Of a stretch of DNA of 64,000 bases, positions 3,904 through 62,472 are shown piece after piece (the first letter of the stretch is position 1; every line of letters begins with the position of its first letter). The notes beneath the pieces are model-generated. The model was not told where the DNA came from. It ran no database searches and saw nothing but the letters and a program-made list of their open reading frames with translations. The stretch lies in NCBI GenBank assembly GCA_963835005.1, contig CAWIEA010000001.1:153291-217290 (forward strand), read 5' to 3'. The translations under genes were made by a program, and so were the position numbers. The stretch is from an uncultured Acidimicrobiia bacterium (GTDB lineage Bacteria; Actinomycetota; Acidimicrobiia; IMCC26256; JAENVU01).

Positions 3904-3919
3904 CTGACACGCACGTCAA
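3904..3919. promoter_or_regulatory. Operator-like palindrome CTGAC-N6-GTCA (site 1)
   Basis: Sequence is CTGACacgcacGTCAa. It lies about 20 nt upstream of the ADH start (3883, minus strand), in the divergent gap with 4067. The 17-mer CTGACACGCACGTCAAC is identical to site 3 at 18877. Confidence 0.6.
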
Positions 3920-4066
3920 CAAACGGGCCTCCGGCATAGTCTTCGGCAGGAGCGGAGGCCGGAGCCGGTCACGGAGGCGGCGTGACGGCGCGAGCGGGAC
4001 GGAGTGCGAGCCCGGAACGACCCGAAGTGATGAAGGCCGAAGCGACCAGAAGAGGAGGGGGACACG

Positions 4067-5743
4067 ATGCCGGCAGACCTGGTGATCCGCGGTGGGACGG
4101 TGGTCGACGGGACCGGGGCACCGGGCCGGCGCGCCGACGTCGCCGTCACCGACGGCGTGATCTCGGACATCGGCGACGGGCTCGACGGGGTACGCGAGCT
4201 CGACGCCTCCGACCAGGTGGTGTCGCCGGGCTTCGTCGACATCCACTCCCACTACGACGCGCAGGTGTTCTGGGACCCGGCGCTCACGCCGTCGAGCTTC
4301 CACGGCGTCACGAGCGTCGTCGCCGGCAACTGCGGCTTCTCGATCGCGCCGTGCCGGCCGGAGCACCGCAAGCTGCTCGCCCGCACGCTGCAGCACGTGG
4401 AGGACATGGACCTCGCCACGCTCGAGGCCGGGATCCCGTGGGACTTCGAGACGTTCCCCCAGTACCTCGACTCGGTGGCCCGGCACGGCACCGCGCTCAA
4501 CTACGGCGTCTACGTCGGGCACACCGCGGTCCGCCTCTTCGTCATGGGCGAGGAGGGCTACGAGCGCGAGCTGCCGACCGAGGCCGAGCTCGCGACGATG
4601 CAGCACGTCGTCCGCGAGGCGATGGACGCGGGCGCGATGGGATTTGCGACCAGCTCGTCGGCCACGCACAACGGCGACGGCGGCCGTCCGGTCCCGAGCC
4701 GGCTCGCGGATCGCGCCGAGCTCGAGGCCCTGCTCGACCCGCTGCGTGCGACCGGCAAGGGCGTGGCCGCGCTCCTCCCCGGCGAGAAGATCAAGCACGC
4801 CGACGTGCACGAGATCCAGGCGCGCGTCGGCCGCCCGCTCACGTGGACCGCGCTGCTCACGATCAAGGGCTTCCCGTGGCACGAGGACATCATCAAGGCG
4901 AACGACGAAGCTCGTGCGCACGGCGGCCAGGTGTGGCCCCAGATCTCGGTGCGCCCGCTCGTGTTCCAGATGAACCTGCGCGAGCCGTTCACGTTCAACA
5001 TGGCGCCGGCGTTCGCCGCGCTCATGGCCGAGCCGGACGCGGTGCGCATGGAGAAGTACGCGGACCCGTCATGGCGGCGGCTCGCCCAGGGCGACCTGGA
5101 CAACAAGGCGTTCCTGCGCCCGAACTGGGACGCGCTCGAGGTCGCCGAGAGCACTGCGCACCCCGAGCTGGTCGACCGGCGCGTCGTGGAGATCGCGGCG
5201 GAGCGCGGCTGCACCGCACTCGACGTCATGCTCGACACCTCGCTCGACGAGCAGCTGGAGACCCGGTTCCGCTCGACGCTCGCCAACAACGACCCGGACG
5301 CGATCGCATGGCTCCTGCAGCGCGAGGGCGTGCTGATCGGCCTGGCCGACTCGGGCGCGCACGTGAGCCAGCTCTGCGACGCGTGCCTCCCCACCGACCT
5401 CCTCGGCAACTGGGTGCGCGAGAAGGAAGTGATCTCGCTGGAACGGGCCGTGAACAAGCTCACCGGCGAGCCCGCGGGCGTCTTCGGGCTCGACGCCGCG
5501 GACGGCGGCCGCGGCCTCCTGCGCGAGGGTATGGCCGCGGACGTGACCGTCTTCGACCCCGACACGGTCGCTCCGGGGCCGCTGCGCCGGATCCGCGACT
5601 TCCCGGCCGACGGCGAGCGGCTCACCGCGGACGCGCCGAGCGGCATGACCCACACCCTCGTCAACGGTGTGCCGATCCGGGTCGACGGCGAGCCGGTGGC
5701 CGACACCGCCGACCTGCGCCCGGGCCAGGTGCTCCGGAGCTGA
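4067..5743 (+). CDS. Amidohydrolase, N-acyl-D-amino-acid deacylase (D-aminoacylase) family
   Basis: Intact 558-aa ORF with a GAGGAGGGGG SD-like run just upstream. Motifs: DLVIRGGTVVDGTG, PGFVDIHSHYD metal-binding motif, GVTSVVAGNCG, LADSGAH. Paralog of 21130..22852. Confidence 0.85.
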   Translation: MPADLVIRGGTVVDGTGAPGRRADVAVTDGVISDIGDGLDGVRELDASDQVVSPGFVDIHSHYDAQVFWDPALTPSSFHGVTSVVAGNCGFSIAPCRPEHRKLLARTLQHVEDMDLATLEAGIPWDFETFPQYLDSVARHGTALNYGVYVGHTAVRLFVMGEEGYERELPTEAELATMQHVVREAMDAGAMGFATSSSATHNGDGGRPVPSRLADRAELEALLDPLRATGKGVAALLPGEKIKHADVHEIQARVGRPLTWTALLTIKGFPWHEDIIKANDEARAHGGQVWPQISVRPLVFQMNLREPFTFNMAPAFAALMAEPDAVRMEKYADPSWRRLAQGDLDNKAFLRPNWDALEVAESTAHPELVDRRVVEIAAERGCTALDVMLDTSLDEQLETRFRSTLANNDPDAIAWLLQREGVLIGLADSGAHVSQLCDACLPTDLLGNWVREKEVISLERAVNKLTGEPAGVFGLDAADGGRGLLREGMAADVTVFDPDTVAPGPLRRIRDFPADGERLTADAPSGMTHTLVNGVPIRVDGEPVADTADLRPGQVLRS

Positions 5744-5766
5744 GCCCCGCCGCGTACGATCCCGGC

Positions 5767-6660
5767 GTGACCACGTCGGCTTCCCCGAACCGCGCCGCGC
5801 TGCTCGTGACCGGCGCGACCGGCTTCGTGGGCGGGCACCTCGTCCGCCGGCTGATCGACGACGGCTGGCTGGTCGATGCGCTCGTCCGCTCCGCCGACGC
5901 CGACCTGCCCGCGGCGGTCGTGGTCCATCCGATCCCCGAGCCGATCGACCAGCTGATCGCGCTCGTCGGCGAGATCGAGCCGTCGGTGTGCTTCCACCTC
6001 GCGACTGCCTTCCGGGGCGTCCACGTCCCCGCGGACATCCAGCCGATGGTCGAGGCCAACGTGGGCTTCGGCGTCGCGCTCGCCGAGGCCGTGAGCCAGG
6101 CCGGCGACTGCACGTTCGTGAACACGGGCACCGTGTGGCAGCACTACGAGGCGAGGCCGTACAGCCCGGTCTCGCTCTACGCCGCGCTGAAGCAGTCGTT
6201 CACCGACGCGCTCCGGTTCTACGAGGAAGTCGCCGCGCTCCCCGTCGTCACGCTCGAGCTCACCGACACCTACGGCCCCGGCGACCCGCGACCGAAGCTG
6301 CTGCCGATCCTCGTGCGGGCCGCGCGTGAAGGCACCGCTTTGCAGATGACCGACGGCACCCAGCTCATCGACCTTCTCCACGTCGAGGACGCGGTCAGCG
6401 CGCTGCTCGCGACCGCGGCCGGCGAAGCCGGTTCGACCTACGGCGCGTCGGGCGGCGACACGTTGACGCTGCGCGACCTGGTCCAGCGGTTCGAGACCGT
6501 GTCGGGCCTGTCGGTGACGGCCGAGTGGGGCGTCCGGCCCTCCCGGCCCCGGGAGATGCTGACACCGTGGATGGTCTCGGGTCCGCCCCCGGGGTGGGCC
6601 CCGGAGGTGTCGCTCGACGACGGCATCCGCGCCCTGCTCCGCGACTCGGGCACCTCCTGA
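5767..6660 (+). CDS. NAD-dependent epimerase/dehydratase family protein
   Basis: GTG 5767 lies in the frame of ORF 3982..6660. It has a LLVTGATGFVGGHL Rossmann motif and YAALK (YxxxK). The preceding ~595 codons of the ORF are out-of-frame noise over gene 4067..5743. The start codon choice is uncertain. Confidence 0.75.
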   Translation: MTTSASPNRAALLVTGATGFVGGHLVRRLIDDGWLVDALVRSADADLPAAVVVHPIPEPIDQLIALVGEIEPSVCFHLATAFRGVHVPADIQPMVEANVGFGVALAEAVSQAGDCTFVNTGTVWQHYEARPYSPVSLYAALKQSFTDALRFYEEVAALPVVTLELTDTYGPGDPRPKLLPILVRAAREGTALQMTDGTQLIDLLHVEDAVSALLATAAGEAGSTYGASGGDTLTLRDLVQRFETVSGLSVTAEWGVRPSRPREMLTPWMVSGPPPGWAPEVSLDDGIRALLRDSGTS

Positions 6661-10892: not shown

Positions 10893-10908
10893 CTGACATC
10901 CGTGTCAG
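10893..10908. promoter_or_regulatory. Operator-like palindrome CTGAC-N6-GTCAG (site 2)
   Basis: Sequence is CCTGACAtccgTGTCAGG. It lies centrally in the 58-nt gap between the divergent ACAD genes (starts 10862 and 10921). Confidence 0.65.
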
Positions 10909-10920: not shown

Positions 10921-12040
10921 ATGGACTTCGAGCGGTCGGACGAACAGGAGCTCCTCGCGGAGTCGGTCACCCGGTTCCTGAGTCGAGCGCGCGCCACTCG
11001 CGCCCTACGTCCGCGACCGGCTCGACGACGACCACGGCACCACCGCGCCGGTCTGGCAGGGCCTGGCCGATCTCGGCGTCGTCGGTCTGCTGGTGCCCGA
11101 AGCGCACGGCGGCGCGGGGATGGGCATGGTCGACGCCGCGGTCGTGCTCGAGGCGCAGGGTCGCTTCGTGCACCCCGGGCCGTACGCGGCGAGCGCAATC
11201 GGCGCAGCCAGCATCGTCGACCTCGCCGGCGAGGACCGGGATCGCGAGGCCTTCCTCCCCCAGCTTGCGTGCGGCGCGACCGTCGGGACCGTCGCGCTCT
11301 GGGAGTCCGGCCACCGGCGCGGCTGGGACGAGCCCGAGACGCTCGCGATCGAGGACGGCGACGCGTGGCGCCTCGATGGCACGAAGGTCCACGTCCCCGA
11401 CGCAATCGGCGCGGACGTCATCTTCGTCGTTGCCCGGCTCCCTCACGGAGGCGGCGGCGTGTTCCGGGTGACCCCGGAGACGCAGGGCGTCACGGTGACC
11501 GCCACGCCGACCGTCGACGGGACACGCAAAGAGGCGACCGTCGAGCTCGTCAACGCCGAGGCCTTCGCGATCGGCGCCGGCGACCGGACCGACGCGATCG
11601 CGGCGACCGTCGACCGGCTGACGACCGCGATGGTCGTCGACGGGGTCGGCGCGGCCGAGCGCGCGATGGAGCTCGCGGTGGAGTACGCCAAGGAGCGCGA
11701 GCAGTTCGGCGCGCCGATCGGGACGTTCCAGGCCGTCCAGCACCTCTGCGCCGACATGCTGCGCGCGGTCGAGCTGGCCAAAGCCGCGGCGTACTACGCG
11801 TGCTGGGCGTGTGACGCGGCCGACGCGGCCGAGCGGCACCGGGCCGCCACGATGGCGCAGGCGTTCGCGGCAGACTCGCTGTACTCCGTGGGCGCGAACG
11901 CGATCCAGGTCTTCGGCGGCGTCGGCTTCACCTGGGAGCACGACATCCACCTCTATTACAAGCGGCTCCTGACCCTGCAGCACTTCGCCGGCGGGACTGT
12001 CGACCAGCTCGAGGAGCTCGCGAGCATCACCCTCGACTGA
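10921..12040 (+). pseudogene. Acyl-CoA dehydrogenase family protein (likely partner subunit of 9667..10862); one +1 frameshift near 10985
   Basis: The gene opens MDFERSDEQELLAESVTRFLS. One extra base later ERAPLAPYVRDRLDDDHGTTAPVWQGLADLGVVGLLVPEAHGG joins ORF 11093..12040 (FGAPIGTFQAVQH, GGVGFTWEHDIHLYYKRL). Confidence 0.8.
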
Positions 12041-18876: not shown

Positions 18877-18892
18877 CTGACACGCACGTCAA
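18877..18892. promoter_or_regulatory. Operator-like palindrome CTGAC-N6-GTCA (site 3)
   Basis: Sequence is CTGACacgcacGTCAa. It lies 24 nt upstream of the MaoC start (18853), in the 42-nt gap after the fused ACAD stop. Confidence 0.6.
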
Positions 18893-18895
18893 CTT

Positions 18896-21064
18896 TCACG
18901 GGTCCTTGGGAAGACCCAGAACCCGCTCGCCGACGATGTTGCGCTGGATCTCGCTGGTGCCGCCCGCGATCGTCAGGCAGCGGGTGAAGAGGAACTGCTG
19001 CGACCACGATGCGGCGGCGCCGTCGGCGATCGCACCCTCCCCGGCCAGGAGCTCGAGCCCGACCTCCTGGGTGCGCTGGTCGTGCTCGACGCCGAGCAGC
19101 TTCTTCACCGACGCCTCGGAGCCCGACGGGTCCGCGCCGGTCAGCGCCGAGAGCGTGAGCCGGTACCCGAGCACCGCGAGCGCGTACCCGGTGGCGACGA
19201 GGTCGCCGACCTCGGTCAGCGTCTCGGTGTCGTCCTCGGCCCCCTTGGCCCGGACGATGTCGAGGATCCCGCGGATCCCGAAGCCGATCGTGGCGCCACT
19301 GCCCATCGACACGCGCTCGTTGGCGAGCGACGTCCGCGTCGCGCGCCAGCCGTCGTGCTCCGCGCCGACCAGGCAGTCGTCCGCGACGAACACCTCGTCG
19401 AGGAACACCTCGTTGAACATCGCGTCGCCGGTGAGCTCGCGCAGCGGGCGGATGTCGATGCCGTCGGACTTCATGTCGAGCATGAAGAACGAGATGCCCT
19501 CGTGCTTCGGCGCCTCGGGATCGGTGCGGGCGAGGAGGATGCCCCAGTCGGCCTGCTTGGCCATCGAGGTCCAGACCTTCTGCCCGCTGACGAGCCACCC
19601 ACCCTCGATGCGCTCGGCCTTCGTCGTCAGCGAGGCGAGGTCCGAGCCCGCACCGGGCTCGCTGAAGAGCTGGCACCACTGGATCTCACCGCGCAGCGTC
19701 GGCGGGATCCACCGCTGCTGCTGCTCCTCGGTCCCGTAGACCATGAGCGGCGGCAGGGCCCATCCCCCGATGGAGATGTTCGGGCGGACGATCCCGGCCT
19801 GCTTGAACTCGTCGTCGATGACGACCTGCTGCAGCGCGTCCGCGTCGCGACCCCATGGCTTCGGCCACTGCGGCTGCACGAAGCCCTCGTCGACCATGCG
19901 GCCGCGCTGCTCACTCTTGTCGAGCGCCGCGATCTCCGCAGCCTGCGCGCCGATCTCCTCGCGGTACTCGTCGGCACCGGCGGGCAGGTCCATGGTGAGG
20001 CGGCGCTTCACGCCCTGGAGCGCGAGCTTCGCAACGGCGACGCGGTAGTCCGACGCGCCGCCGAGCAACGCGCGGGTCGCCATCGCGCGCCGGAGGTAGA
20101 CGTGCGCGTCGTGCTCCCAGGTGAACCCGATGCCTCCGAGGGTCTGCACGCAGTCTTTGGCGGTCTGGAACGCGCCGTCGATCGAGAGCGCGGCCGCCGC
20201 CGCCGCCGCGAAACCCTCGGTGTCGGTGTCCCCGATCGCGCGCGCGGCGTCCCAGGTCGCGGCCCGGGCCAGCTCGGTCCGCGAGAGCATGTTGGCGCAG
20301 CGGTGCTTCACACCCTGGAACTGCCCGATGGGCCGGCCGAACTGGCGACGGTCCTTCGCGTACTCGGATGCCGTCGCCACACACCACTGCGAGAGCCCGA
20401 CCGCGTCCGCCGAGAACAACGTCGCCGCGATGCTCACGACCACCGGTGTCGTCAGCGCCACGAGCTGCCGGTCCGGCGGGACGACGACGCCGTCCTTCAC
20501 CGTGATCTCCGCGACACGGCGGGTCTTGTCGACGCTGTCGAGCTCCGTCGCCGCGAACTCGTCGGCAGTCAGCGCGACCCACGTCCCGCCCGCGTCGACG
20601 AGGAACAGGTTCGCCAGGTGGCCGGAGAGCACTGGTCGCGCCGTGCCACTGACCGCGATCCCACCGTCGACCGGCGACCCGTCGAGCGCGGCCTCGATGC
20701 CGACCGCGCCGACGACCGAGCCGTCGGCGAGCCCGGGCCCGAAGGTGCCGGCGACCTCCTTGCCCGCGGCCTGGACCACCGCACCGGCGATCGTCGTGGC
20801 CAGGAACGGGCCGGGCGCCGCGGCCGCGCCGAGCTCCTCGAGCACCACCGCGAGCTCGGGGATCCCGTAGCCCTCGCCGCCGACCGCCTCGTCGAGGTGG
20901 ATGCCGACCCAGCCCTGCGCCGCGAGGTCGGACCAGAAGGACGGCAGTGCCTCGGTCGGCTCGTCGAGCTGGGCCCGCGGCACGCTCGGTGGGCAGTGGC
21001 GCTCGGCCCATCCTCGGACCGCGTCGTGCAGCGCCAGGTGTTCGTCGGAGATCCCCATCGGCAT
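18896..21064 (-). CDS. Fused tandem acyl-CoA dehydrogenase (two ACAD modules in one 722-aa chain)
   Basis: Intact ORF. Module 1 has FGRPIGQFQGVKHRCANM and GGIGFTWEHDAHVYLRR. Module 2 has LFSEPGAGSDLASL, GQKVWTSMA and AGGTSEIQRNIVGERVLGLP. The architecture resembles fused alpha-beta ACADs such as mycobacterial FadE34. This is an architecture-level comparison only. Confidence 0.85.
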   Translation of the reverse strand: MPMGISDEHLALHDAVRGWAERHCPPSVPRAQLDEPTEALPSFWSDLAAQGWVGIHLDEAVGGEGYGIPELAVVLEELGAAAAPGPFLATTIAGAVVQAAGKEVAGTFGPGLADGSVVGAVGIEAALDGSPVDGGIAVSGTARPVLSGHLANLFLVDAGGTWVALTADEFAATELDSVDKTRRVAEITVKDGVVVPPDRQLVALTTPVVVSIAATLFSADAVGLSQWCVATASEYAKDRRQFGRPIGQFQGVKHRCANMLSRTELARAATWDAARAIGDTDTEGFAAAAAAALSIDGAFQTAKDCVQTLGGIGFTWEHDAHVYLRRAMATRALLGGASDYRVAVAKLALQGVKRRLTMDLPAGADEYREEIGAQAAEIAALDKSEQRGRMVDEGFVQPQWPKPWGRDADALQQVVIDDEFKQAGIVRPNISIGGWALPPLMVYGTEEQQQRWIPPTLRGEIQWCQLFSEPGAGSDLASLTTKAERIEGGWLVSGQKVWTSMAKQADWGILLARTDPEAPKHEGISFFMLDMKSDGIDIRPLRELTGDAMFNEVFLDEVFVADDCLVGAEHDGWRATRTSLANERVSMGSGATIGFGIRGILDIVRAKGAEDDTETLTEVGDLVATGYALAVLGYRLTLSALTGADPSGSEASVKKLLGVEHDQRTQEVGLELLAGEGAIADGAAASWSQQFLFTRCLTIAGGTSEIQRNIVGERVLGLPKDP

Positions 21065-21086
21065 GGAACCGATCCTACGGGCGCAC

Positions 21087-21102
21087 CTGACCGCCGTGTC
21101 AG
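21087..21102. promoter_or_regulatory. Operator-like palindrome CTGAC-N6-GTCAG (site 4)
   Basis: Sequence is ACCTGACcgccgtGTCAGGT. It lies in the 65-nt divergent gap between 21064 (minus) and 21130 (plus). An extra half-site CTGAC lies at 21121. Confidence 0.65.
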
Positions 21103-21129
21103 GTCCACGGCGGGCATAACCTGACGGCC

Positions 21130-26730: not shown

Positions 26731-26746
26731 CTGACGGACCCGTCAG
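26731..26746. promoter_or_regulatory. Operator-like palindrome CTGAC-N6-GTCAG (site 5)
   Basis: Sequence is CTGACggacccGTCAG. It lies in the divergent gap between the ferredoxin start (26673) and the amidohydrolase start (26768). Confidence 0.65.
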
Positions 26747-26767
26747 GCTCCTCGTAGCCTGGGGATC

Positions 26768-30018: not shown

Positions 30019-30034
30019 CTGACGTCCGTGTCAT
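30019..30034. promoter_or_regulatory. Operator-like palindrome CTGAC-N6-GTCA (site 6)
   Basis: Sequence is CTGACgtccgtGTCAt. It lies 20 nt upstream of the P450 start (29999) and overlaps the stop of the upstream kinase gene. Confidence 0.6.
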
Positions 30035-35076: not shown

Positions 35077-35092
35077 CTGACGCCGACGTCAG
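35077..35092. promoter_or_regulatory. Operator-like palindrome CTGAC-N6-GTCAG (site 7)
   Basis: Sequence is CTGACgccgacGTCAG. It lies 49 nt upstream of the thiolase start (35028) and overlaps the LCP gene stop. Confidence 0.6.
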
Positions 35093-36865: not shown

Positions 36866-36915
36866 GTTTCGGTGTCGAATTCGGTCGCTGAGGCGACGGA
36901 ATTCGACACCGAAAC
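36866..36915. repeat. Intergenic palindromic element (CTCGTTTCGGTG subfamily), near-perfect 22-bp stem
   Basis: GTTTCGGTGTCGAATTC-GGTCGCtgagGCGACG-GAATTCGACACCGAAAC. The right flank is CACCGAAACGAGCT. It lies between the PHP gene stop (36919) and the sigma start. Confidence 0.85.
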
Positions 36916-36918
36916 GAG

Positions 36919-37551: not shown

Positions 37552-39103
37552 CAGCGCGGGCTCGGGCCGTCGACCCGCACCGTGTGCAGCCGGTGCTCCT
37601 CGTCGTCGGAGGTCAGGCAGCGTCCACCGTCCAGCTCGAAGCGCCAGTGGTGCACCTTGCACTCGAGGATCCCGTCCTCGACCGTCCCGAACCGCTCGAG
37701 GTCGGCGCGGCAGGTGCGGGCAGCGCTTCTGCACGAGGTAGTCGCCGCAGCGGAACGTCTCGTCGCTGCGCTCCGACCGCGTCGCGTAGTGGCCCTCGCA
37801 GTACGCCATCCGCTCGAGCGTGAGGCACTTGAAGAACGTGTAGATGTACTCGTTGTAGGAGCCGTCGCGGTGGGCCCGGAAGCGGCACGACAGGAACAGC
37901 TCGTTCACCCAGTCCTCGACGTGTCGCTCGATGCACGACTGCACGAGCGCGCGGGCGGCGTCGATCCGGTAGACGGTGGCCTCACCGCTCCACTCGCGCA
38001 CGGTGCCGTTCGGGAAGTCGATGAGGACACCGAGGTCACCCAGGTGCAGCAGCACCGCGCCGCCGACCCCGGCCCGCGTGAGCGGGGCGACGTCGAGGAT
38101 CGGCTCCCACCAGTCCCGCAGCGCACCGACGACGTCGATCGGCTCCCGTGGCCACGACGCTCGTTCGCGTTCGAGCCACGGTCGCCAGTCGTCGCGGTAG
38201 CGCTCGATCGCCGCGCGCTTGTCATCGAAGATCGCGTCGGGCGCCATCGCCCCCGTCGGCTGCTCGATCGTGCACTCGCCGGCGTGGAGGGTCGCGACCG
38301 TCCCCGGCACGAGCAGCTCGCCGCCGGGCAGTCCCGCAGCGCTCGAGCTCGCGCAGGAACACCGTTTGGTCCGGGAAGATGTTCGCCGGGTCGCCGTCGA
38401 GGTCGTTGAACGCGGAGAGGTCTTCGTCGAGGAAGCACGGCGGGCCCGCGATCGGGAAGATGTGCGGGGCGTGCACGTCGCGCAGGTAGTGCAGCGCCCG
38501 CTCCATCTGGTCGGTCCGCTTCTGCACCCCGAGCCGGTGCTGCTCCTCGGGCGGGAAGTCGTAGACCATCGGGTACCAGATCGCCCCCGAGAACTGGGTG
38601 AAGTGCGCGTCGAACGGGCCCAGCGCCTCGAGCTCGTGGAGATCGCGCGGGCGGGCGTCGTTCTGGTTGAGCAGCCGGGCGGTCGAGTCGCCCAGGACGA
38701 GCGCGGAGTCCCCCGCGGGGCCGTCGGCGGGTGCCGTCATCGCGAGGATCGCGACCTCGAGCGCGCCGAGCTGCACGGGCTTGGCGTGCTCCGTGTGCAC
38801 GAACCGCCCGAACCCCAGGCCGCGCAGCGCCTGCTCGAGGTGGTCGAGCTCGTAGGCCGGGAGGAGGACGGTCGCCTGCGTATCGACGTTCGCCGTGAGC
38901 CATTCCGGGTCGTAGTGGTCGTGATGCAGGTGCGAGATGTAGAGGTAGTCGGGCGACGAGAACCGCGCCGGGTCCAGGACGTCGTTGCGGGGGAACGGGA
39001 ACCAGGAGGCGAAGTACGCGGGCGTGAACCACGGGTCGCAGAGGACGCTCCCGCCCTCCGTCTCCACGTACATCCCCGCGTGCCCGAGGAAGGTCACCCG
39101 CAT
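37551..39103 (-). pseudogene. MBL-fold metallo-hydrolase fused to a C-terminal Rieske [2Fe-2S] domain; two +1 frameshifts near 38337 and 37708
   Basis: ORF 38222..39103 carries MRVTFLGHAGM and YISHLHHDHYD (HxHxDH). The middle lies in ORF 36919..38310 (AGLPGGELLVPGTVATLHAGEC...). The hand-joined tail is RCPHLRADLERFGTVEDGILECKVHHWRFELDGGRC (CxH ... CxxH), ending VDGPSPR. Confidence 0.7.
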
Positions 39104-41715: not shown

Positions 41716-41731
41716 CCTGACGGAAGCGTCA
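41716..41731. promoter_or_regulatory. Operator-like palindrome CTGAC-N6-GTCA (site 8)
   Basis: Sequence is CTGACggaagcGTCAc. It lies 16 nt upstream of GTG 41747, next to the AGGAGGG SD. Confidence 0.55.
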
Positions 41732-41746
41732 CCCAGGAGGGCGAGC

Positions 41747-42205
41747 GTGGCACTGACCGAGCTCAAGGGCACCGAGACCGGGAAGCAGAAGGTCCGCATC
41801 GAGCGGGGCCCGGTGCGCGTGTTCGCGCAGGCGCTCCTCGACGACGACCCGGTCTACGACGGCGACGACGCGCCGGTGCCGCCGACGTTCCCGTTCGTCA
41901 TGCCGTTCTGGGGCTCCCTCGGTCAGGGCGGCGCTGCGGGCCTGCCGATCGAGAAGCTCCGGGGCCCGGGCCGGGCGATCCTGCACGGCGAGCAGGGCTT
42001 CGAGTTCACGCGCTACCCGCGCGTCGGCGACGTGCTCGAGGGCACGACCACCGTCACCGACGTGTACGAGAAGGAGCGCTCGAACGGCGGCAAGCTCGAG
42101 TTCTACGTGACGGAGACGGCCTGGACCGACGCCGAGTCCGGCGACCCGGTGTGCACGTCGAAGTTCACGCTCGTGATCAACGTCCGCCCGCCGAAGACCG
42201 ACTGA
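41747..42205 (+). CDS. MaoC_N / FAS1-like hotdog dehydratase subunit
   Basis: Intact 152-aa ORF. It has PPTFPFV, LHGEQGFEF and a single hotdog-fold length. This is typical of the N-terminal-type subunit that pairs with MaoC hydratases. Confidence 0.7.
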   Translation: MALTELKGTETGKQKVRIERGPVRVFAQALLDDDPVYDGDDAPVPPTFPFVMPFWGSLGQGGAAGLPIEKLRGPGRAILHGEQGFEFTRYPRVGDVLEGTTTVTDVYEKERSNGGKLEFYVTETAWTDAESGDPVCTSKFTLVINVRPPKTD

Positions 42206-43929: not shown

Positions 43930-44712
43930 TCACGTCGAGTACGAACCGTCGGCTTGACGGTGCCAGCCACCCGCGGCGCGGTTGCCGCCGTCGACGTGGA
44001 TCGTGGTGCCGGTGACGAACCCGCTCAACGCCGGGTTCGCGAGGAACACGATCGCGGCGGCGATGTCGTCGACGTGGCCGGCGCGCGGGAGCGGGGTGCG
44101 GATGCCCATGTCGGTAGCAATGCCGGGCGTCGGGATCACGTCGGGCGCGACGCAATTGACGCGGACCATCCGGGGCCCGAGCTCCAGCGCGAGGCTCTTG
44201 GTGAGGTTGGCCTGCGCCGCCTTCATCGCGCTGTAGACCGCGAAGCCCGGTCCCGCCCGATGCGCCTCGATCGAGGTGACGTTGACGACCGATCCTCCGG
44301 TGTCCGGCATGAGCGGCACCGTGCCGCGGATGAAGGTCGTCACGCTGGTGAAGTTCTCGCGGACGAGCGCGTCCTGACCCTTGTCGTTGACGTCGAGGAA
44401 CGCGGCCTGGAAGCCACCGCCGGCGTTGTTCACGAGGACGTCGACGTGACCGAAGCTGTCGGCGACCTCGCTGAGCCACGCGCTGACCTGACCCTGGTCG
44501 CGGACGTCGAGCACACCCGGGAGCGCGCGCCTTCCGGTCGTCTGCACTTCGGCGGCCGCGGCGGCGAGCTGGTCGGCGTCCCGGTCGCAGATCGCGACGT
44601 CGGCGCCGAACCGGGCGAGCGCGACGGCCGTCGCCCGGCCGATGCCGGCCGCAGCTCCGGTGACGATCGCGACGCGATCGTCGAGGCGGACATCGTCGGG
44701 CCCGAGCGGCAT
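43930..44712 (-). CDS. SDR-family oxidoreductase
   Basis: ATG 44712 gives 260 aa with VAIVTGAAAGIGRA, LVNNAGG and YSAMKAA. The upstream 124 codons of ORF 43930..45084 are noise. Confidence 0.85.
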   Translation of the reverse strand: MPLGPDDVRLDDRVAIVTGAAAGIGRATAVALARFGADVAICDRDADQLAAAAAEVQTTGRRALPGVLDVRDQGQVSAWLSEVADSFGHVDVLVNNAGGGFQAAFLDVNDKGQDALVRENFTSVTTFIRGTVPLMPDTGGSVVNVTSIEAHRAGPGFAVYSAMKAAQANLTKSLALELGPRMVRVNCVAPDVIPTPGIATDMGIRTPLPRAGHVDDIAAAIVFLANPALSGFVTGTTIHVDGGNRAAGGWHRQADGSYST

Positions 44713-44739
44713 GGGCGGCACCCTAGCTACTGTCGACCC

Positions 44740-45538
44740 ATGAGCTATTCGGTCGAGGGCAAGCACGTGTTGGTGACGGGCGCGTCGTCGGGCATCGGCG
44801 CCGCGCTCGCCGAAGGGTTCGCCGCCGCCGGCGCGACCGTCGGGATCTGCGCCGCGGCGGGAGGACCGGCTGCAGTCGGTGTTGGAGAAGGTGCAGGCGC
44901 ACTCACCGGCGTCACGAATGTGGACCGTCGACCTCGCCGACCTCGACGGTGTGGCCGCGTTCGCGGCCCGGGCGTCGGAGGAGCTCGGCGGGATCGACGT
45001 GCTCGTGAACAACGCCGGCATCCCGAAGCGACGCCAGGTCACCGAGCTCGACCCGGCGACGGTCGAGGCCGTGATGTCGATCAACTACTTCTCGCCGGTG
45101 CGGCTGACGCTCGCACTGCTCCCCCAGCTGATCGCGCGCTCGGGCCGCATCGTGAACATCTCGTCGGTCGCGGCGCGGCTCGGCCCGCCGGCCGAGGCCG
45201 CGTACACCGCGTCCAAGGCCGCGCTGACCGGGTGGTCGGAGTCGATGCAGGTCGATCTCGCGGTGGCGGGGACGGATGTGCTCGTCCACGTCGTGAACCC
45301 CGGCGTGATCGACACCGACCTCTTCCACCTGCCGGACAACGACGAGTCGATGGCGGACATCGAAGCACTCCCGGTCGAGGCCATGGTCCAGCCGGTCCTC
45401 GACCAGCTCGCCTCAGGGACGTTCGAGATCTACGTCCCCGGCTGGTTCGCCGACGTCGTCGGCGGCCGCTTCCCCGACACCGGCGCCTTCCTCGCCGGCT
45501 CCATCGCCTGGGTCAAGCAGAAGCAAGGCACGTCCTAG
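44740..45538 (+). pseudogene. SDR-family oxidoreductase; one +1 frameshift near 44854
   Basis: ATG 44740 gives MSYSVEGKHVLVTGASSGIGAAL...VGICA. One extra base later RREDRLQSVLEKV joins ORF 44879..45538 (LVNNAGI, YTASKAA). Confidence 0.8.
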
Positions 45539-48179: not shown

Positions 48180-49658
48180 CTAGCCCTTGGGCGGCAGCCC
48201 GATCGTCTTGGTCTCGAGGTACTCCTCGAACCCGGGGATGCCGTGCTCGCGGCCGAGGCCGGACTCCTTGTACCCGCCGAACGGCGAGTCGGGACCGAAC
48301 CACAGACCGCCGTTGACCGACACGGTCCCGGTCCGCAGCCGCTTCGCGATCCCGTACGCACGATCCAGGTCCACGCTGACCACTCCACCGGAGAGCCCGT
48401 AGCGCGAGTTGTTCGCGATGCGCACTGCGTCGTCGTCATCGTCGAACGGGATCACCGCGAGCACCGGCCCGAAGATCTCCTCCTGCGCGATCGTCGAGTC
48501 GGGGTCGACGTCGACGAACAGCGTCGGCTCGACGTAGTAGCCCTTCTCGAACTGCTCGGCCCGACCTCCGCCGAACGCCAGCGTGGCGTTGCCCTCGGAC
48601 TTGCCCTGCTCGATGTACCCGAGCACGCGCTCGCGCTGGCGGGCGTTGATCAACGGCCCCTGCATGTTCTCGGGGTTGGTCGGGTCGCCGTAGCTCCAGC
48701 TCTCGAAGGCGACCTTCAGCAGGTCGACGGCCTCGTCGTGGCGCGATCGTGGCACCAGCATGCGCGTCGTGATCGCGCAGCCTTGACCACCGTGCATGCA
48801 CACCATCGGACCCGTCGACATCACCGACGGGAAGTCGGCGTCGTCGAGGATGATGTTCGCCGACTTGCCACCGAGCTCGAGGAACACGCGCTTCAGGTTC
48901 TCCGCGCCCTGCACCATGATCCGCTTGCCGACGCCGCTCGAGCCGGTGAACGAGATCATGTCGACGTCCCGGCTGCCCGTCAGCACCTCGCCGACGGCCG
49001 CGGGGTCGGACGACGTCACCACGTTGAGGACTCCCGGCGGCAGGTCCGTGTACTCCGCCGCGACCCGACCGATGTGCGTCGCGCTCCAGGGCGTGTCCGG
49101 CGCGGGCTTCAGGACGACGGTGTTCCCCGCCGCGAGCGCGGGCACGACCTTCGACAGGTTGAGCATGAACGGGAAGTTCCACGGCGTGATCGCGCCCACG
49201 ACGCCGATCGGCTCACGCAGGACGCGACGGCCGCTCGTCATCCCGAAGAACTCGTGCTCGGGGAGGTCGTACTCCCACGAGATGCGGTCGATGCACTCGA
49301 TGTCCCACTCCATGTCGTCGATGCAGGAGTCCTGCTGCACCGCGTACGTGAGCATGATCGGGGCACCGACCTCGGCGACGATCTGCGGGCGGAGCACTTC
49401 GCGCTCCTTCGCCAACGCCTCCTGCAGCTGGCGCAGGCACCGCTTGCGCAGGTCGCGGTCCTCGGCCCAGCTCGTCTCCTCGAAGGCCCGCTTGGCCGCG
49501 CCGATGGCGCGCTCCATGTCGGCGGGGGCCGCGTCGGCGACCTGCCCGATGGCCTCTTCGGTGGCCGGGTTGATGTTGTCGTAGGTGGCCCCCGACGCTG
49601 CGTCGACGAGCTCCCCGTCGATCAGCATCCGGTGCTCGCCGCTCACCGACTCCCCCAT
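48180..49658 (-). CDS. NAD(P)-dependent aldehyde dehydrogenase
   Basis: Intact 492-aa ORF with FPFMLNLSKVVPALAAGNTVVLKP, FLELGGKS and GGQGCAITTR (catalytic Cys). Confidence 0.9.
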   Translation of the reverse strand: MGESVSGEHRMLIDGELVDAASGATYDNINPATEEAIGQVADAAPADMERAIGAAKRAFEETSWAEDRDLRKRCLRQLQEALAKEREVLRPQIVAEVGAPIMLTYAVQQDSCIDDMEWDIECIDRISWEYDLPEHEFFGMTSGRRVLREPIGVVGAITPWNFPFMLNLSKVVPALAAGNTVVLKPAPDTPWSATHIGRVAAEYTDLPPGVLNVVTSSDPAAVGEVLTGSRDVDMISFTGSSGVGKRIMVQGAENLKRVFLELGGKSANIILDDADFPSVMSTGPMVCMHGGQGCAITTRMLVPRSRHDEAVDLLKVAFESWSYGDPTNPENMQGPLINARQRERVLGYIEQGKSEGNATLAFGGGRAEQFEKGYYVEPTLFVDVDPDSTIAQEEIFGPVLAVIPFDDDDDAVRIANNSRYGLSGGVVSVDLDRAYGIAKRLRTGTVSVNGGLWFGPDSPFGGYKESGLGREHGIPGFEEYLETKTIGLPPKG

Positions 49659-49701: not shown

Positions 49702-49717
49702 CTGACACGCGAGTCAG
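49702..49717. promoter_or_regulatory. Operator-like palindrome CTGAC-N6-GTCAG (site 9)
   Basis: Sequence is ACCTGACacgcgaGTCAGGG. It lies 44 nt upstream of the aldehyde dehydrogenase start (49658). Confidence 0.65.
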
Positions 49718-52330: not shown

Positions 52331-52969
52331 TCAGGGCTTGGCCGCGCGGCCGGTGACGGTCTGGAAGATGATCCGGGCCGTGGTCTCGACCACGTCGTCA
52401 CGACTCGCGCCGTACGACTCCAGGTCGGTGTGGAACGCGGCCATCCGCTCCATCATCGCGACGAGCGCGGCCGCGGCGGCGTACGGCGCGAGCCCTTCGA
52501 CGTCGTTGGTCGCGACCTTCCGGGACAGACCCTCGGTCAACGGCCGCAGCGACGCGTTGCGCACGTCGCGGAACCGCTGGTCGCCTTCCTGCGCGGCGAG
52601 GTTGCGGGTGCGCAGGATGGCGCGGTGGCCGTCCCAGAACCGGAGGAACCCGTCGACGAGGTCACGCGCCATCGCGAGCCCGGCGTCGCCGCGCCAACGC
52701 GGCTCGAGCAGCTCGCTCAGCGGCGCGGTCTGCTCCCCCACCGACTCCGCGAGGGCGAGCACCGCCTCCTCGACGTCGCGGAAGTACTGGTAGAAGGTCG
52801 CCGGCGACGTCCCGACCGCGCGGGCGATGTCGACGACGCGCAGGTCGCGCAGCCCCTTGCTCTCGAGCAGCTCACCCGTCGCCTGCAGCAACCGGGCCCG
52901 AGTCGCGGCCCCGCGCTTGCCGAGCGATCGCCCGTCGAGCGCGTTGGCACCGGAGTCGAGAGCCCCCAC
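52331..52969 (-). CDS. TetR-family transcriptional regulator
   Basis: Intact 212-aa ORF. The N-terminal HTH is ATRARLLQATGELLESKGLRDLRVVDIARAVGTSPATFYQYF. Confidence 0.85.
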   Translation of the reverse strand: MGALDSGANALDGRSLGKRGAATRARLLQATGELLESKGLRDLRVVDIARAVGTSPATFYQYFRDVEEAVLALAESVGEQTAPLSELLEPRWRGDAGLAMARDLVDGFLRFWDGHRAILRTRNLAAQEGDQRFRDVRNASLRPLTEGLSRKVATNDVEGLAPYAAAAALVAMMERMAAFHTDLESYGASRDDVVETTARIIFQTVTGRAAKP

Positions 52970-52984
52970 GGCCGCGGAGGGTAT

Positions 52985-52999
52985 CTGACGCCCCGTCAG
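52985..52999. promoter_or_regulatory. Operator-like palindrome CTGAC-N5-GTCAG (site 10, one base shorter spacer)
   Basis: Sequence is ATCTGACgccccGTCAGAT. It lies 16 nt upstream of the TetR start (52969). Confidence 0.55.
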
Positions 53000-53107: not shown

Positions 53108-53123
53108 CTGACATGCACGTCAG
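53108..53123. promoter_or_regulatory. Operator-like palindrome CTGAC-N6-GTCAG (site 11)
   Basis: Sequence is CTGACatgcacGTCAG. It lies 61 nt upstream of ATG 53184, in the same divergent gap as site 10. Confidence 0.6.
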
Positions 53124-53183: not shown

Positions 53184-53702
53184 ATGGACACCAAGAACTC
53201 GATGCGGCGCCGCGCGCTCGCGGGAGCGGGCGCGCTCGCACTCGCGGTTTCCGGCGTGGCGCTGGCCGGCGGGACGGCCGGTGCGGCGAAGGCCCCGCCG
53301 AAGCCGAAGGGCAAGACGACCTGTCCCACGGTCATCGGCACCGTCGCCGGCACGATCCAGCTCACCAACTGCGTCGACGTCGGTGGTGCCAACACCGGCG
53401 GCTCCACCGTGGCGTTCCCCACGCTGAACCTGGCGACCGGCGGCGTGTTCCTGTGGACGAGCGGGAAGACCACCACCACCGGTGCGCCCGTCACCACTCC
53501 GGCCAATGCGAAGAAGTGCCCCGGCTACGTGAAGCTCAAGAAGACCGATCCCCCGGTTCCCGAGCCTGCGGCGCTCAGCGTCACGAGCGCGGTGATCTCG
53601 GACACGGCCGGCATGAAGGTCCCGGGCAAGGTCAAGGGCGCCGTCTGCATCTCGAAGGACGGGACCACGGTCACGGCGCTGAAGCCGTTCAAGATCAACT
53701 GA
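53184..53702 (+). CDS. Small secreted hypothetical protein (Thr/Gly/Lys-rich, four Cys)
   Basis: ATG 53184 has an AAGGGGGGA SD. The signal peptide is MDTKNSMRRRALAGAGALALAVSGVALAGGTAGA. The mature part is about 140 aa with C at TTCPT, TNCVD, KKCPG and AVCIS. No family recognised. Confidence 0.6.
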   Translation: MDTKNSMRRRALAGAGALALAVSGVALAGGTAGAAKAPPKPKGKTTCPTVIGTVAGTIQLTNCVDVGGANTGGSTVAFPTLNLATGGVFLWTSGKTTTTGAPVTTPANAKKCPGYVKLKKTDPPVPEPAALSVTSAVISDTAGMKVPGKVKGAVCISKDGTTVTALKPFKIN

Positions 53703-60277: not shown

Positions 60278-60803
60278 TCGGGGTCGCCGAGACCGCGCTG
60301 CTCGTGCCCGTCGCGCGAGGCCGAGCCGCTCGTGCGCCACCACCGGCTCGCGCTCGATCCCGTCGCGCCGCTCGGCGTGCCCGCGCACATGACCGTCCTC
60401 TACCCGTTCGTGCCGCCCGACGAGCGTCGACAAGACGGTGTGCGACGCGATCGCCGAAGTGGTCGACCGGCTTCCGGCGTTCGACTTCGCGCTGCGCGGA
60501 GGTGCGCCAGCTTCCCCGACGGCGTCATCTACCTCGCGCCCGAGCCGACCGAGCCCTTCGTCGCGATCACCGCGGCGCTCGTCGAGCGCTGGCCCGACCA
60601 CCCGCCGTACGGCGGCGCGTACGAGGCCGTCGTCCCCCACCTGACTGTGGCCCAGACGAACGGCTCCGCGGACGTCGCCGCGCTCGAGGCCGAGCTCAAC
60701 GGCGGCCTGCCGATCCCGGCGCTCGCGGACGCGGTGTGGCTGATGGAGGGCCAGCCCGAAGGACCGCTGGGCGATCCGGGCCGTCTTCCCGCTGCCGAAG
60801 TAG
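60274..60803 (+). pseudogene. 2H phosphoesterase / 2'-5' RNA ligase (LigT-like) family protein, about three +1 frameshifts
   Basis: GTG 60274 overlaps the upstream TGA (GTGA). Two HxT/S motifs are present ([10 protein letters not shown] and VVPHLTVAQ). The tail RWAIRAVFPLPK ends at TAG 60801. Confidence 0.65.
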
Positions 60804-60806
60804 GAC

Positions 60807-62452
60807 TCAGCGCTTCGCCGACGTCAGCGCTGCTCGAACGTGAAGCCGCTGCGCCTCGCGGTCCCAGGTCGCGCTCGGTCACGCCGTCATCGCGCAGCTC
60901 GTACTTGAGGACCCGGCCGACCGGGTTGCGGGGCAGGTCGTCGCGGAACTCGATGTAGCGCGGCACCGCGAAGTACGGGACCTGGTCGACCGACCACCGG
61001 CACAGCTCCTCCTCGGTGACCGTCACTCCCTCCTGCAGGACGGCGGTGACCTTCACGTCGTCCTCGCCCTGCGCGCTCGCGACCGCGTGGACGGCGACGT
61101 CCTTGATCGCGGGGTGGGCGACGAACGTCCGCTCCATCTCGAAGCTGGAGATGTTCTCGCCCCGCCGGCGCAGGTAGTCCTTCTTGCGGTCGACGAAGTA
61201 GAGGAACCGGTCGTCGTCGACCTTGCCGAGGTCGCCGGTGTGGAACCAGAGGTTGCGGAGCACGTCGACGGTCGCCTCGGGCCGGCGCCAGTAGCCCGCG
61301 AACATCAGGTTCGGGCCCGGTCGGCCGGCAGACGATCTCGCCGATCTCGCCGACCGCGACGTCGCGGTCCTCGTCGTCGACGACGCGCACCTCGAACTCG
61401 TCGTCGTTCAGCCGACCCGCCGCGCCGGGCCGGTTCGGCTCGCCCGCCGGGAGCAGCGAGATCAGCGACGCCTCGGTGAGGCCGTAGCCCGCGCTGAACG
61501 TCGCGCAGCCGAACCGCTCGCGCCAGATGCGGTCGGTGTCCGGCGGCATCGGCGCCGCGGCGCACAGCCGGAGCCGGTGACCCTGCTGCTCGGGGACGTC
61601 GTCCGCGTTCGCGACGAGGATCGCGAGCGAGCCGAGCATCGAGAGCATCGTCGCGTCGGTGCGCTTCACCTCGGTCCAGAAGCGGCTCACCGAGAACTTG
61701 CGGACGATCGCCGCGCTGCCGCCGGTGATCAGCGTCCCGACCACGCACACCGAGATCGCGTTGAAGTGGAAGAGCGGGAGCGGCGTGAGCACGACGTCGT
61801 CGGCGCGTGCGCTGCCAGGCCCGGGCGATCTGCTCGGCCGAGCGCGACCACGTAGTGGTGCGGGAGCATGCAGCCCTTCGACGGGCCGGTCGTGCCGGCG
61901 GTGTAGATGAAGCAGGACAGGTCGGACGGCCGCAGGCCCGGGTCGCGGCGGGGCCTCGTCGCTCCCGGCTGCGAGCAGCGTCGGCCCAGTCGTCGACCGG
62001 GAGGCCGGTGATCGCGGCGTCGCGTCGGCGCCGGCCACGACGACGGCCCGCAGCTCGGGCAGGTCGGTCGGCCGGCGGTCGGCACGAGCTCCGCCATCCG
62101 GCCGGCCAAGCTCGCCCTGGACGACCATGACCCCGGCGCCGGAGTCGGCGAGGACGTGGCGCAGGAACTCGCCCTTGTAGGCGGTGTTGATCGGCACCTG
62201 GATCGCGCCGAGCTTCGCCGCCGCGAAGAAGCTGATCACCTGCTCGGGGGAGTTCTCGAGCAGCGTGGCGACCCGGTCGCCCCGCCCGACGCCGAGGCCG
62301 GCGAGCTGGTGGGCGATGCGGTTCGCGCCTGGTCCATCTCCCGGGCGGTGAGCGCGACCCCGTCGAAGTCGAGGTACGGACCGTCCGGATCCGCGCTGCA
62401 GCCGGGTCGCGAGGGCGTCGAGAACGGTCGTGTCGGCGGGGGAACCGGGCAT
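60807..62452 (-). pseudogene. AMP-dependent acyl-CoA synthetase/ligase, at least six +1 frameshifts
   Basis: ATG 62452 gives MPGSPADTTVLDALATRLQRDPDGPYLDFDG. Fragments: IYTAGTTGPSKGCMLPHHY (frame of ORF 61729..62109), GYGLTEAS, WFHTGDLG, YLRRRGENIS, PRNPVGRVLK. The tail TERDWDREAQRLHV... ends at TGA 60807, 3 nt from the convergent gene. Confidence 0.75.
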
Positions 62453-62456
62453 GCGC

Positions 62457-62472
62457 CTGACACTACCGTCAC
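62457..62472. promoter_or_regulatory. Operator-like palindrome CTGAC-N6-GTCA (site 12)
   Basis: Sequence is CTGACactaccGTCAc. It lies only 5 nt upstream of ATG 62452 (minus strand). This suggests a leaderless or very short-leader transcript. Confidence 0.5.

Follow-up and report, generated by a model that had tools for sequence, protein, structure and literature searches.

The locus considered here raises a simple question: is a short palindrome that recurs between the catabolic genes of an uncultured actinobacterium the operator of a transcription factor, and if so, which protein reads it? The stretch analysed, hereafter the window, comprises 64,000 nt of an uncultured Acidimicrobiia bacterium (contig CAWIEA010000001.1, positions 153,291 to 217,290). 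A preliminary description listed twelve CTGAC-N6-GTCAG palindromes in its promoter gaps and read them as a dense local regulon of catabolic genes. We found that the motif is enriched in the window, occurs there between genes only, overlaps predicted promoters, and is conserved upstream of orthologous genes and of the gene of a TetR-family protein. The palindrome measures 16-20 bp, and its consensus, aCC-TGAC-R-N4-Y-GTCA-GGt, would in our estimate (probability of about 0.7) be the DNA site to which a homodimeric repressor of the TetR family binds as its operator; the most probable candidate is the protein encoded in the window itself at 52331-52969.

Number, placement and conservation of the palindrome

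All twelve sites of the preliminary description are present, the eighth starting at 41717 rather than 41716 and having the right arm GTCAC; only six of the twelve (starts 10893, 21087, 26731, 35077, 49702, and 53108) are perfect CTGAC-N6-GTCAG palindromes, with 0.18 expected. The 4+4 core TGAC-N6-GTCA occurs 11 times in the window, the G+C content of which is 70-73% throughout, against 1.06 expected; first-order Markov simulations of the window give 0.9 +/- 1.0 such cores, and 100 dinucleotide shuffles give at most five. The twelfth site, starting at 52985, has a 5-nt spacer (N5), as had been claimed, and lies 16 nt upstream of the TetR gene. Apart from this single N5 site, spacers other than N6 are at chance level in the window, as are N6 variants with one mismatch (1 intergenic, 20 coding), in which the signal is gone; the swapped palindromes GTCA-N6-TGAC and TCAG-N6-CTGA have no match there. 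A symmetrised 24-nt position weight matrix (PWM) scored the 11 N6 sites of the window at 18.8-27.9 bits and the next best position, in coding sequence, at 14.3 bits.

Lists of open reading frames (ORFs) are uninformative at this G+C content, and the gene map was therefore built from third-position G+C (GC3 frame plot); a maximal-segment GC3 map, checked with Pfam, was the basis for the coding/intergenic classification. Coding segments cover 85.6% of the window. All twelve sites fall between these segments, and the exact N6 cores are distributed as 11 intergenic and none coding, a placement with a chance probability of 0.144^11, or approximately 5e-10. The location of the sites in non-coding gaps was thus described correctly, and the motif reaches a similar density neither in coding sequence nor in shuffles, where about one core is expected. 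The distance to the start codon, given earlier as 5 to about 60 nt, is 4 to about 75 nt for most served genes; the exception is the Amidohydro_3 gene at 4067, about 147 nt from its site.

Relatives of the TetR protein are 57-92% identical to it, and those that carry names come from metagenome-assembled genomes (MAGs) of Acidimicrobiia. We fetched 80 orthologous TetR loci with 10-kb flanks and used the 76 high-G+C loci for core counts. These 76 loci contain 113 N6 cores, with 19 +/- 4 expected; 90 of the cores are intergenic in sequence that is 85% coding (binomial P ~1e-52), and for 80 of these 90 the next gene downstream is homologous to a gene of the window. An N6 site precedes the orthologue of the aldehyde dehydrogenase (ALDH) in 31 loci, the two genes of a divergent short-chain dehydrogenase/reductase (SDR) pair in 19 and 16, the TetR gene in 9 (N6 only), the acyl-CoA synthetase in 7, and MaoC_N in 6, and other orthologues are preceded by sites as well. 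Conservation upstream of orthologues, named in the preliminary description as a check of its reading, is therefore strong. In the window, the SDR pair (43930-44713, minus strand; 44740-45538, plus strand) is separated by a 26-nt gap (44714-44739) that retains a TAGGGT -10 box and has no site; the site has apparently been deleted in the lineage of the window, which would make this pair constitutive.

Of the window, the 80 loci cover no more than the surroundings of the TetR gene; hence, three islands, L088, L089, and L090, were added via the fused acyl-CoA dehydrogenase (ACAD). They are orthologous to the window (82, 69, and 67% identity at the protein level), with gene order kept. Sites were found in them at the promoters of the cytochrome P450, Amidohydro_2/ferredoxin, Amidohydro_3/fused-ACAD, MaoC-operon, and ACAD-pair genes. 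Since relatives keep sites in islands that were fetched without a TetR gene, the regulon is not only local; of the earlier phrase 'dense local regulon', the regulon stands and its merely local character does not. The extended consensus given above derives from the relatives, where flanking positions that had not been used for selection are conserved as well: C at -1 in 82%, C at -2 in 61%, A at -3 in 52%, and R at +4 in 94% of sites. Two of the islands also carry DUF222-HNH endonuclease genes of the 13E12-repeat type at different insertion places (L088:10195-11421 and L089:3400-4566), which are absent from the window.

In the window and relatives taken together, N6 cores number 136 (18 expected) and N5 cores 41 (20 expected), and the N3, N4, N7, and N8 forms are at or below chance. 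The two enriched classes differ in their flanks, which are mostly ACC for N6 and mostly ATC for N5. Both classes occur at the same promoters: the TetR promoter has N5 in the window and N6 in L001-L005, L007, and L008, and the fused-ACAD promoter has N6 in the window and L088 and N5 in L089 and L090. The odd N5 spacer at 52985 is real, because the site sequence is identical in the nearest relative, which was assembled independently by JGI (L082). An assembly error, plausible in a window with so many frame breaks, was rejected on this ground and in view of N5 sites in many short-read MAGs. One protein reading both spacings would be the simplest account of the swaps at orthologous promoters; the swap itself is an unexplained oddity and a modestly interesting puzzle.

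The candidate regulator and competing explanations

The candidate regulator gene (52331..52969, minus strand) encodes a 212-aa TetR-family protein composed of the Pfam domains TetR_N and TetR_C_38. TetR_N, the TetR-type helix-turn-helix domain, spans residues 27-68 and scores 33.5 bits (cut-off 24), and the C-terminal TetR_C_38 scores 91.7 bits. The AlphaFold2 model (10 helices, pLDDT 91.5) has the TetR fold; Foldseek ranked EthR first (TM 0.76, probability 1.00), followed by FasR, DesT, and FadR. The recognition helix GTSPATFYQYFRD (residues 53-65) is invariant in 29 orthologues and is identical across clades whether their autoregulatory site is of the N5 or the N6 class. A search of the 220 nt before each of the 80 TetR orthologues gave 26 exact N5 sites, 11 exact N6 sites, 11 sites of the form TGAC-N5-GTGA, and 5 other one-mismatch sites, with 27 loci having no site. 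The palindrome thus stands in the TetR gene's own promoter in 48 of 80 loci (37 exact and 11 near-exact), against a background of at most 0.03 per 250 nt.

The family comprises 106 representatives at E <= 1e-30 among 1.8 billion entries. A Streptomyces homologue cluster of 673 members, 42% identical to the window protein, has TetR_C_38 and the same GTSPATFYQYF helix; in three species the homologue adjoins an ACAD/Ltp-thiolase divergent promoter, and that gap holds the only TGAC-N5-GTCA in 12.6 kb. The assignment of the palindrome to the TetR protein is supported indirectly, by the palindrome in its own promoter, the invariant recognition helix, and the Streptomyces homologue beside the same core. 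Literature searches for TetR_C_38/PF19352 and for the recognition-helix peptide returned nothing.

Two further groups of relatives deserve mention. Some of the closest representatives (P0121, P0123, P0124, P0126, and others) are about 440-480 aa long and consist of a tandem pair of TetR units (about 40% identity each), and one is annotated from Phenylobacterium. Two contigs labelled Mycobacterium sp. (L086 and L087) encode a TetR_C_38 homologue, 41% identical, beside a MarR gene and between a cluster of enoyl-CoA hydratase, ALDH, and extradiol-dioxygenase genes and an mce operon (yrbE/MlaE, Mce/MlaD). We saw no convincing palindrome on these contigs; their sole TGAC-N6-GTCA lies inside yrbE.

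Several points weigh against the assignment. The TetR gene's own site in this lineage differs from the other regulon sites in its N5 spacer and ATC flank, and therefore either one dimer accepts two spacings or two regulators exist. No site lies close upstream of the 27 TetR orthologues mentioned above; in many of these loci the gene is internal to an operon, and an N6 site stands about 1.7 kb before it. A regulator gene that is itself a target can carry the site of another factor. The organism is known from metagenome assemblies only, the gene map combines a GC3 heuristic with Pfam on a sequence with many frame breaks, and the sequences considered are 64 kb of the genome and, from relatives, pieces of 20 kb with regulon genes at their centre.

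These points bear on the best surviving alternative, namely, that a different dimeric regulator with its gene outside the window (a paralogous TetR protein or, for instance, a member of the CRP/FNR family) reads the N6 palindrome, the local TetR protein being a mere regulon member or a binder of N5/ATC sites only. We regard it as unlikely. It would accommodate the N5/ATC site of the TetR gene here and in 26 relatives, given that 11 of 12 window sites are N6 and mostly ACC; it would likewise fit the siteless TetR orthologues and the islands fetched without any TetR gene, and CRP-type sites have the same 5-N6-5 geometry. On the other hand, the N5/N6 swaps at the TetR and fused-ACAD promoters are simplest with a single protein, the recognition helix does not vary between clades with the two kinds of autoregulatory site, and the Streptomyces homologue also adjoins a TGAC-N5-GTCA promoter. 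Among the ORFs scanned, which are part of all ORFs of the window, no regulator gene was found besides TetR and an ECF sigma factor, and none encodes a cyclic-nucleotide (cNMP)-binding regulator. Finally, the position of the sites relative to the -10 box is variable, unlike that of class I and class II activator sites: they range from overlap with the -10 box to approximately +6 and do not take the fixed position of CRP/FNR-type sites (about -41.5 or -61.5).

We therefore return to the local TetR protein as the candidate repressor. Nearly every site adjoins a predicted TANNNT box, often with a start codon 7-8 nt further on. Relative to these promoters, predicted from sequence alone, the sites fall into four groups: (i) sites 30019 and 62457 overlap the -10 box or the start, (ii) sites 35077, 49702, 52985, and 53108 abut the -10 box, (iii) sites 10893, 21087, 26731, and 3904 cover the spacer or the -35 region, and (iv) site 41717 lies just past the start. 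The single site 21087 serves both promoters of a 65-nt divergent gap. This varied placement on the predicted core promoter argues for a repressor rather than an activator.

In the mechanism that we infer, as regards the binding protein and its repressing action no less than its ligand and the substrate of the pathway, each helix-turn-helix of the dimer would read one (C)TGAC half-site, the half-site centres being 10-11 bp, or about one helical turn, apart. In at least 12 promoters, among them several divergent or leaderless ones, the operators would lie on or beside the -10/-35 elements or the point where transcription starts, so that bound repressor is proposed to block RNA polymerase. Approximately 35-40 genes would be served, with predicted roles in (i) terminal oxidation by P450, ferredoxin, zinc alcohol dehydrogenase (Zn-ADH), and Rv0768-type ALDH, (ii) CoA activation by two acyl-CoA synthetases, and (iii) shortening by beta-oxidation or retro-aldol cleavage by ACADs, including a FadE34/ChsE3-like fused one, MaoC hydratases, DUF35 proteins, an Ltp-type thiolase, a thiolase, and SDRs; accessory hydrolases and luciferase-like monooxygenases (LLM) would also belong to the regulon. 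The repressor would shut off its own leaderless gene through the N5 site. A pathway metabolite, which by analogy with KstR, KstR2, and FadR may be an acyl-CoA thioester, or else the lipid substrate itself, would bind the C-terminal domain and free the repressor.

It is improbable that the palindrome instead binds an activator, either the TetR protein or another, which switches the catabolic promoters on. Sites 10893 and 26731 on their minus sides and site 3904 on its plus side do cover a -35 region, and some TetR-family proteins activate transcription (PMC12980445, discussion). Activators, however, need a fixed phase, whereas the distance to the -10 box runs here from overlap via the -35 region to past the start, and at 21087 one site would have to act on two back-to-back leaderless promoters only 65 nt apart.

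A non-regulatory origin of the pattern, by chance, as a dispersed repeat or hairpin, or as a restriction-modification target excluded from genes, is highly improbable: the core coincides with the type II recognition sequences GAC-N6-GTC and GAC-N5-GTC, which we take to be the DrdI and AhdI sites, and the arms could in principle pair, but enrichment is limited to the T...A-flanked form and to the gaps between genes, the arms show no co-variation and are invariant, the spacer is free, arms of 4-5 nt with a 6-nt loop give no stable hairpin, the sequence around the sites is not repeated, and positions are kept at orthologous promoters across 57-90% protein identity. Avoidance of the restriction-site core was rejected, since the bare GAC-N6-GTC is not depleted in the window and lies above expectation (104 observed, 63 expected, 86 of them coding). 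This excess in coding sequence, together with a deficit of TGAC-N3/N7/N8-GTCA in the 1.26 Mb of the window and related loci, is presumably a codon-phase effect of high third-position G+C and cautions against naive background models.

The twelve sites and the genes they serve

Site 1 (3904..3919, CTGACACGCACGTCAA, N6, 27.1 bits with the PWM) separates the Zn-ADH operon (Zn-ADH, an unnamed gene, and LLM; minus strand) from the divergent Amidohydro_3/epimerase genes (plus strand). The ADH ATG is about 20 nt away; on the minus strand the site includes a TTGACG -35-like hexamer, and 17 nt downstream on the plus strand there is a TAGTCT -10 box. Site 2 (10893..10908, CTGACATCCGTGTCAG, N6, 23.7 bits) separates two acyl-CoA dehydrogenase genes, ACAD1 (minus) and ACAD2, the latter followed by LLM and DinB genes (plus). 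The ACAD2 ATG is 12 nt downstream, behind a GGAGAGG ribosome-binding site, and on the minus side a TAGCGT -10 box stands at 17 nt; the site is kept at the orthologous ACAD pair (L089:17488, L090:19724). Site 3 (18877..18892, CTGACACGCACGTCAA, N6, 24.3 bits) is located 24 nt upstream of an operon encoding MaoC, DUF35, a possible CMD protein, DUF35, and Ltp (minus, 18853 down to about 15981), and is kept at the orthologous MaoC promoters (L089:12212, L090:14208). The preliminary description is correct in giving sites 1 and 3 a common 17-mer and sites 2 and 4 extended arms.

Site 4 (21087..21102, CTGACCGCCGTGTCAG, N6) occupies the gap of 65 nt from which the fused double ACAD gene (18896-21064, minus) and the Amidohydro_3-CMD genes (21130 onward, plus) diverge. 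Both promoters look leaderless (TAACCT-7 nt-ATG and TAGGAT-7 nt-ATG), and the orthologous gap has an N6 site in L088 (7965) and N5 sites in L089 (9956) and L090 (9966). Site 5 (26731..26746, CTGACGGACCCGTCAG, N6) also lies in a divergent gap, with the ferredoxin, patatin, sulfotransferase_4, and acyl-CoA thioesterase genes on the minus strand (TAGGTT) and Amidohydro_2 on the plus strand, where the promoter is leaderless (TAGCCT-7 nt-GTG); it is kept at L088:3886 and L090:6265. Site 6 (30019..30034, CTGACGTCCGTGTCAT, N6) precedes the P450 ATG (29999, minus) by 19 nt. A TACCAT -10-like box overlaps its half-site, the true stop of the FGGY kinase gene is the TGA inside its left half-site, and the site is kept just upstream of the P450 gene in all three islands (L088:397, L089:2078, L090:3339).

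Site 7 (35077..35092, CTGACGCCGACGTCAG, N6) stands upstream of the thiolase gene (33807-35024, minus); a TACGAT -10 box begins 2 nt past it, and the leader beyond this box, about 45 nt long, contains the ribosome-binding site GGGAG. The MaoC_N/FAS1_DH hydratase gene (41747-42205, plus) begins 14 nt past site 8 (41717..41732, CTGACGGAAGCGTCAC, N6). Its TAGCCT -10 box is 12 nt ahead of the site, which places the site at approximately +6 to +21, a roadblock position; it is kept upstream of MaoC_N orthologues in 6 loci. Site 9 (49702..49717, CTGACACGCGAGTCAG, N6), with a TAACCT -10 box 1 nt past it, precedes the ALDH gene (48180-49658, minus), the product of which was assigned to the Rv0768 family by NCBIfam (676 bits). 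This is the best conserved target, the 31 loci with a site upstream of the ALDH orthologue being those counted above.

Site 10 (52985..52999, ATCTGAC-GCCCC-GTCAGAT, N5 class) is the probable autoregulatory site of the TetR gene; 1 nt separates it from a TACCCT -10 box, which is followed after 8 nt by the GTG start (leaderless). Site 11 (53108..53123, CTGACATGCACGTCAG, N6) has the top PWM score, 27.9 bits, and a TAGTGT -10 box 3 nt past it. It lies upstream of an unknown gene (53184-53702) followed by genes for a thiamine pyrophosphate (TPP) enzyme, an SDR, and Amidohydro_2 (plus). Site 12 (62457..62472, CTGACACTACCGTCAC, N6) comes 4 nt before the start codon (ATG, 62452) of an acyl-CoA synthetase gene with a frame break (60529-62452, minus). 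It contains a TAGTGT -10 box, 7 nt ahead of the ATG (leaderless), and sites occur upstream of homologous synthetases in 7 loci.

Many genes of the window appear to be leaderless, having TANNNT 7-8 nt before ATG or GTG and no Shine-Dalgarno sequence (21065-21129, 26747-26767, 52970-52984, 62453-62456, and others). Leaders of 35-60 nt, with ribosome-binding sites of the GGAG type, are seen for the thiolase gene, the ALDH gene, and the gene at 53184.

Genes were named by Pfam and NCBIfam searches, with a Pfam cut-off of E <= 1e-5. Most gene names of the preliminary description agree with Pfam; VOC, DoxX, and DUF2889 were not confirmed at this threshold. The fused double ACAD is a 722-aa FadE34/ChsE3-like protein, and the JGI name for its homologues is 3-oxochol-4-en-24-oyl-CoA dehydrogenase. 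The gene set, which combines terminal oxidation, CoA activation, and ACAD/MaoC/DUF35/Ltp/thiolase/SDR steps, points to a pathway that shortens an alkyl, isoprenoid, or sterol side chain step by step. Steroid ring-degradation genes (Ksh, KstD, Hsa) were not seen in the window. A comparison of the P450 with PDB gave only generic matches with similar scores (YjiB, CYP125 ancestors, CYP124, and CYP142), which do not point to a particular substrate.

No site precedes the non-catabolic genes of the window, namely, those for the FGGY kinase, inositol monophosphatase, LytR, ECF sigma factor, PHP protein, methyltransferase, histidine phosphatase, and Ppx. The catabolic island is interrupted at 35089-38310 by LytR_cpsA_psr, ECF sigma factor, and SCP2_Rv3818-PHP genes, which carry no operator and are outside the regulon. 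The FGGY-family sugar kinase and inositol monophosphatase genes (29996-32100), also without an operator, stand between the thiolase and P450 genes, and this position is kept in all relatives examined (L088-L090).

At least 11 genes of the window shift frame without a stop codon, so that Pfam domains are divided over adjacent ORFs. The breaks are located at approximately 8790, 10290, 10921-10982, 16870, 22000, 27190, 30140, 34265, 40450, 51400, and 61310, and the genes involved are AT3-SGNH, ACAD1, ACAD2, Ltp thiolase, Amidohydro_3, Amidohydro_2, FGGY kinase, thiolase, both acyl-CoA synthetases, and Ppx. None of the breaks is at a homopolymer run, and several are in GCGC-rich contexts. Genes are broken up to the same extent in related 'MFD' MAGs, which are long-read assemblies, but Ppx is intact (449 aa) on a short-read contig from the nearest relative; the breaks are thus most likely assembly indels rather than signs of pseudogenes. 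The operator sites are unaffected by them.

Relation to known regulators and significance

Searches with the palindrome in several notations, N6 and N5, gave no relevant match in the searchable literature. The closest parallel in organization is with KstR and KstR2, which control cholesterol catabolism in Mycobacterium and Rhodococcus. They too are one-domain TetR repressors with a short palindromic operator that is repeated over a clustered lipid/steroid island, including divergent promoters and the regulator's own gene; gene kinds shared with the window are P450, FadE-type ACADs including the FadE34-like fused one, MaoC/DUF35/Ltp, thiolase, and FadD. The ligands of KstR and KstR2 are acyl-CoA compounds. 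HIP-CoA is mentioned for KstR2 (PMC11667970). The system of the window differs in its operator, as had been proposed from the start, neither the KstR operator TnnAACnnGTTnnA nor the KstR2 operator AnCAAGnnCTTGnT having a match in the window; its sites are thus those of neither regulon. It differs also in the C-terminal family of the regulator (TetR_C_38, with no close relative in PDB), in that no ring-degradation genes were seen in the window, and in its host, an uncultured Acidimicrobiia lineage. The earlier claim of a transcription-factor operator of a dense catabolic regulon is supported by this comparison, by those with coding sequence and shuffles, and by the orthologues.

The nearest published half-site is found in three mycobacterial systems. 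HpoR (Rv0767c/MSMEG_5860) is a TetR repressor with the footprinted site (G/A)GACA-NN-TGTCC (PMC5909442), and the TetR repressor LtmA has the site TGACA-nn-TGTCC (PMC13139416); these sites rest on footprinting or EMSA. The 'motif X' regulon of Mycobacterium sp. VKM Ac-1817D comprises 14 predicted phytosterol-induced operons with P450s, ADH, ALDH, SDRs, and TetR genes (PMC6593523). All three share with the window the GAC(A)/(T)GTC half-site core and autoregulation, which in the window is probable; in addition, the motif X regulator gene adjoins an aldehyde dehydrogenase gene (G155_05115/G155_05120), and the ALDH of the window belongs to the Rv0768 family. However, the distance from GAC to GTC is 4 nt for HpoR and LtmA, as compared with 6 (N6) or 5 (N5) nt in the window, that is, 2 or 1 nt wider, GACA-NN-TGTC has no match in the window, and HpoR responds to c-di-GMP. 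NCBIfam gives no equivalog for the window protein, and a search from the only 'Mycobacterium sp.' TetR_C_38 member (P0170) retrieved 19 proteins, none from cultured mycobacteria. The lead to Rv0767c/HpoR, given by the Rv0768-family ALDH, is thus not supported: the spacing is different, the published operator is absent from the window, and this indirect evidence does not speak for orthology.

The best structural neighbours of the predicted model, Thermus/Bacillus FadR, DesT, FasR, and EthR, include DesT with palmitoyl-CoA and FadR with lauroyl-CoA. These neighbours are regulators with lipid or acyl-CoA ligands and control beta-oxidation or lipid genes through palindromic operators, which differ from that of the window. 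The window protein is not a member of these subfamilies, because sequence identity to the four proteins is only 15-23%. Mce3R (Rv1963c) is likewise a TetR-type repressor of a lipid/redox regulon with ACAD pairs, a luciferase-like monooxygenase, and SDRs. Its architecture is a tandem double TetR, and its site is a 25-bp non-palindromic one (PMC11667970), unlike the single 212-aa TetR unit and the palindromic sites of the window. The tandem double-TetR relatives had raised the possibility of an Mce3R-type identity; a PDB sequence search with these proteins (about 470 aa) gave no Mce3R match, and the identity was rejected on account of the single unit and the palindromic site.

In our reading, the system is thus an ordinary kind of KstR-like catabolic regulon with a TetR operator, and is new in its sequence, its regulator subfamily, and its host lineage. 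A bolder reading, which we offer tentatively and rate somewhat below an even chance, is that one conserved TetR_C_38 repressor may be the master switch of a large sterol/isoprenoid side-chain island across uncultured soil and freshwater Acidimicrobiia. It would read ACC-TGAC-N6-GTCA-GGT and ATC-TGAC-N5-GTCA-GAT interchangeably, the flank co-varying with the spacer and the two forms being swapped at the same promoter. If this is true, the narrower gap of HpoR and LtmA (4 nt between GAC and GTC, compared with 5 in Streptomyces) points to a wider rule, by which actinobacterial lipid regulators would retain the half-site and tune the spacing. The N5/N6 swapping poses a concrete question of how TetR dimers tolerate changes in spacing, and the regulator, its ligand, and the substrate are open to experiment, because the Streptomyces homologue occurs in cultivable strains.

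Acidimicrobiia are abundant in soils and waters and almost entirely uncultured, and to our knowledge essentially nothing is known of their gene regulation. The conserved operator provides a computable handle on membership of one catabolic unit, which includes an igr-like MaoC/DUF35/Ltp set, a FadE34-like fused ACAD, a P450, and an Rv0768-type ALDH, and the PWM can be used to delimit the regulon over hundreds of MAGs.

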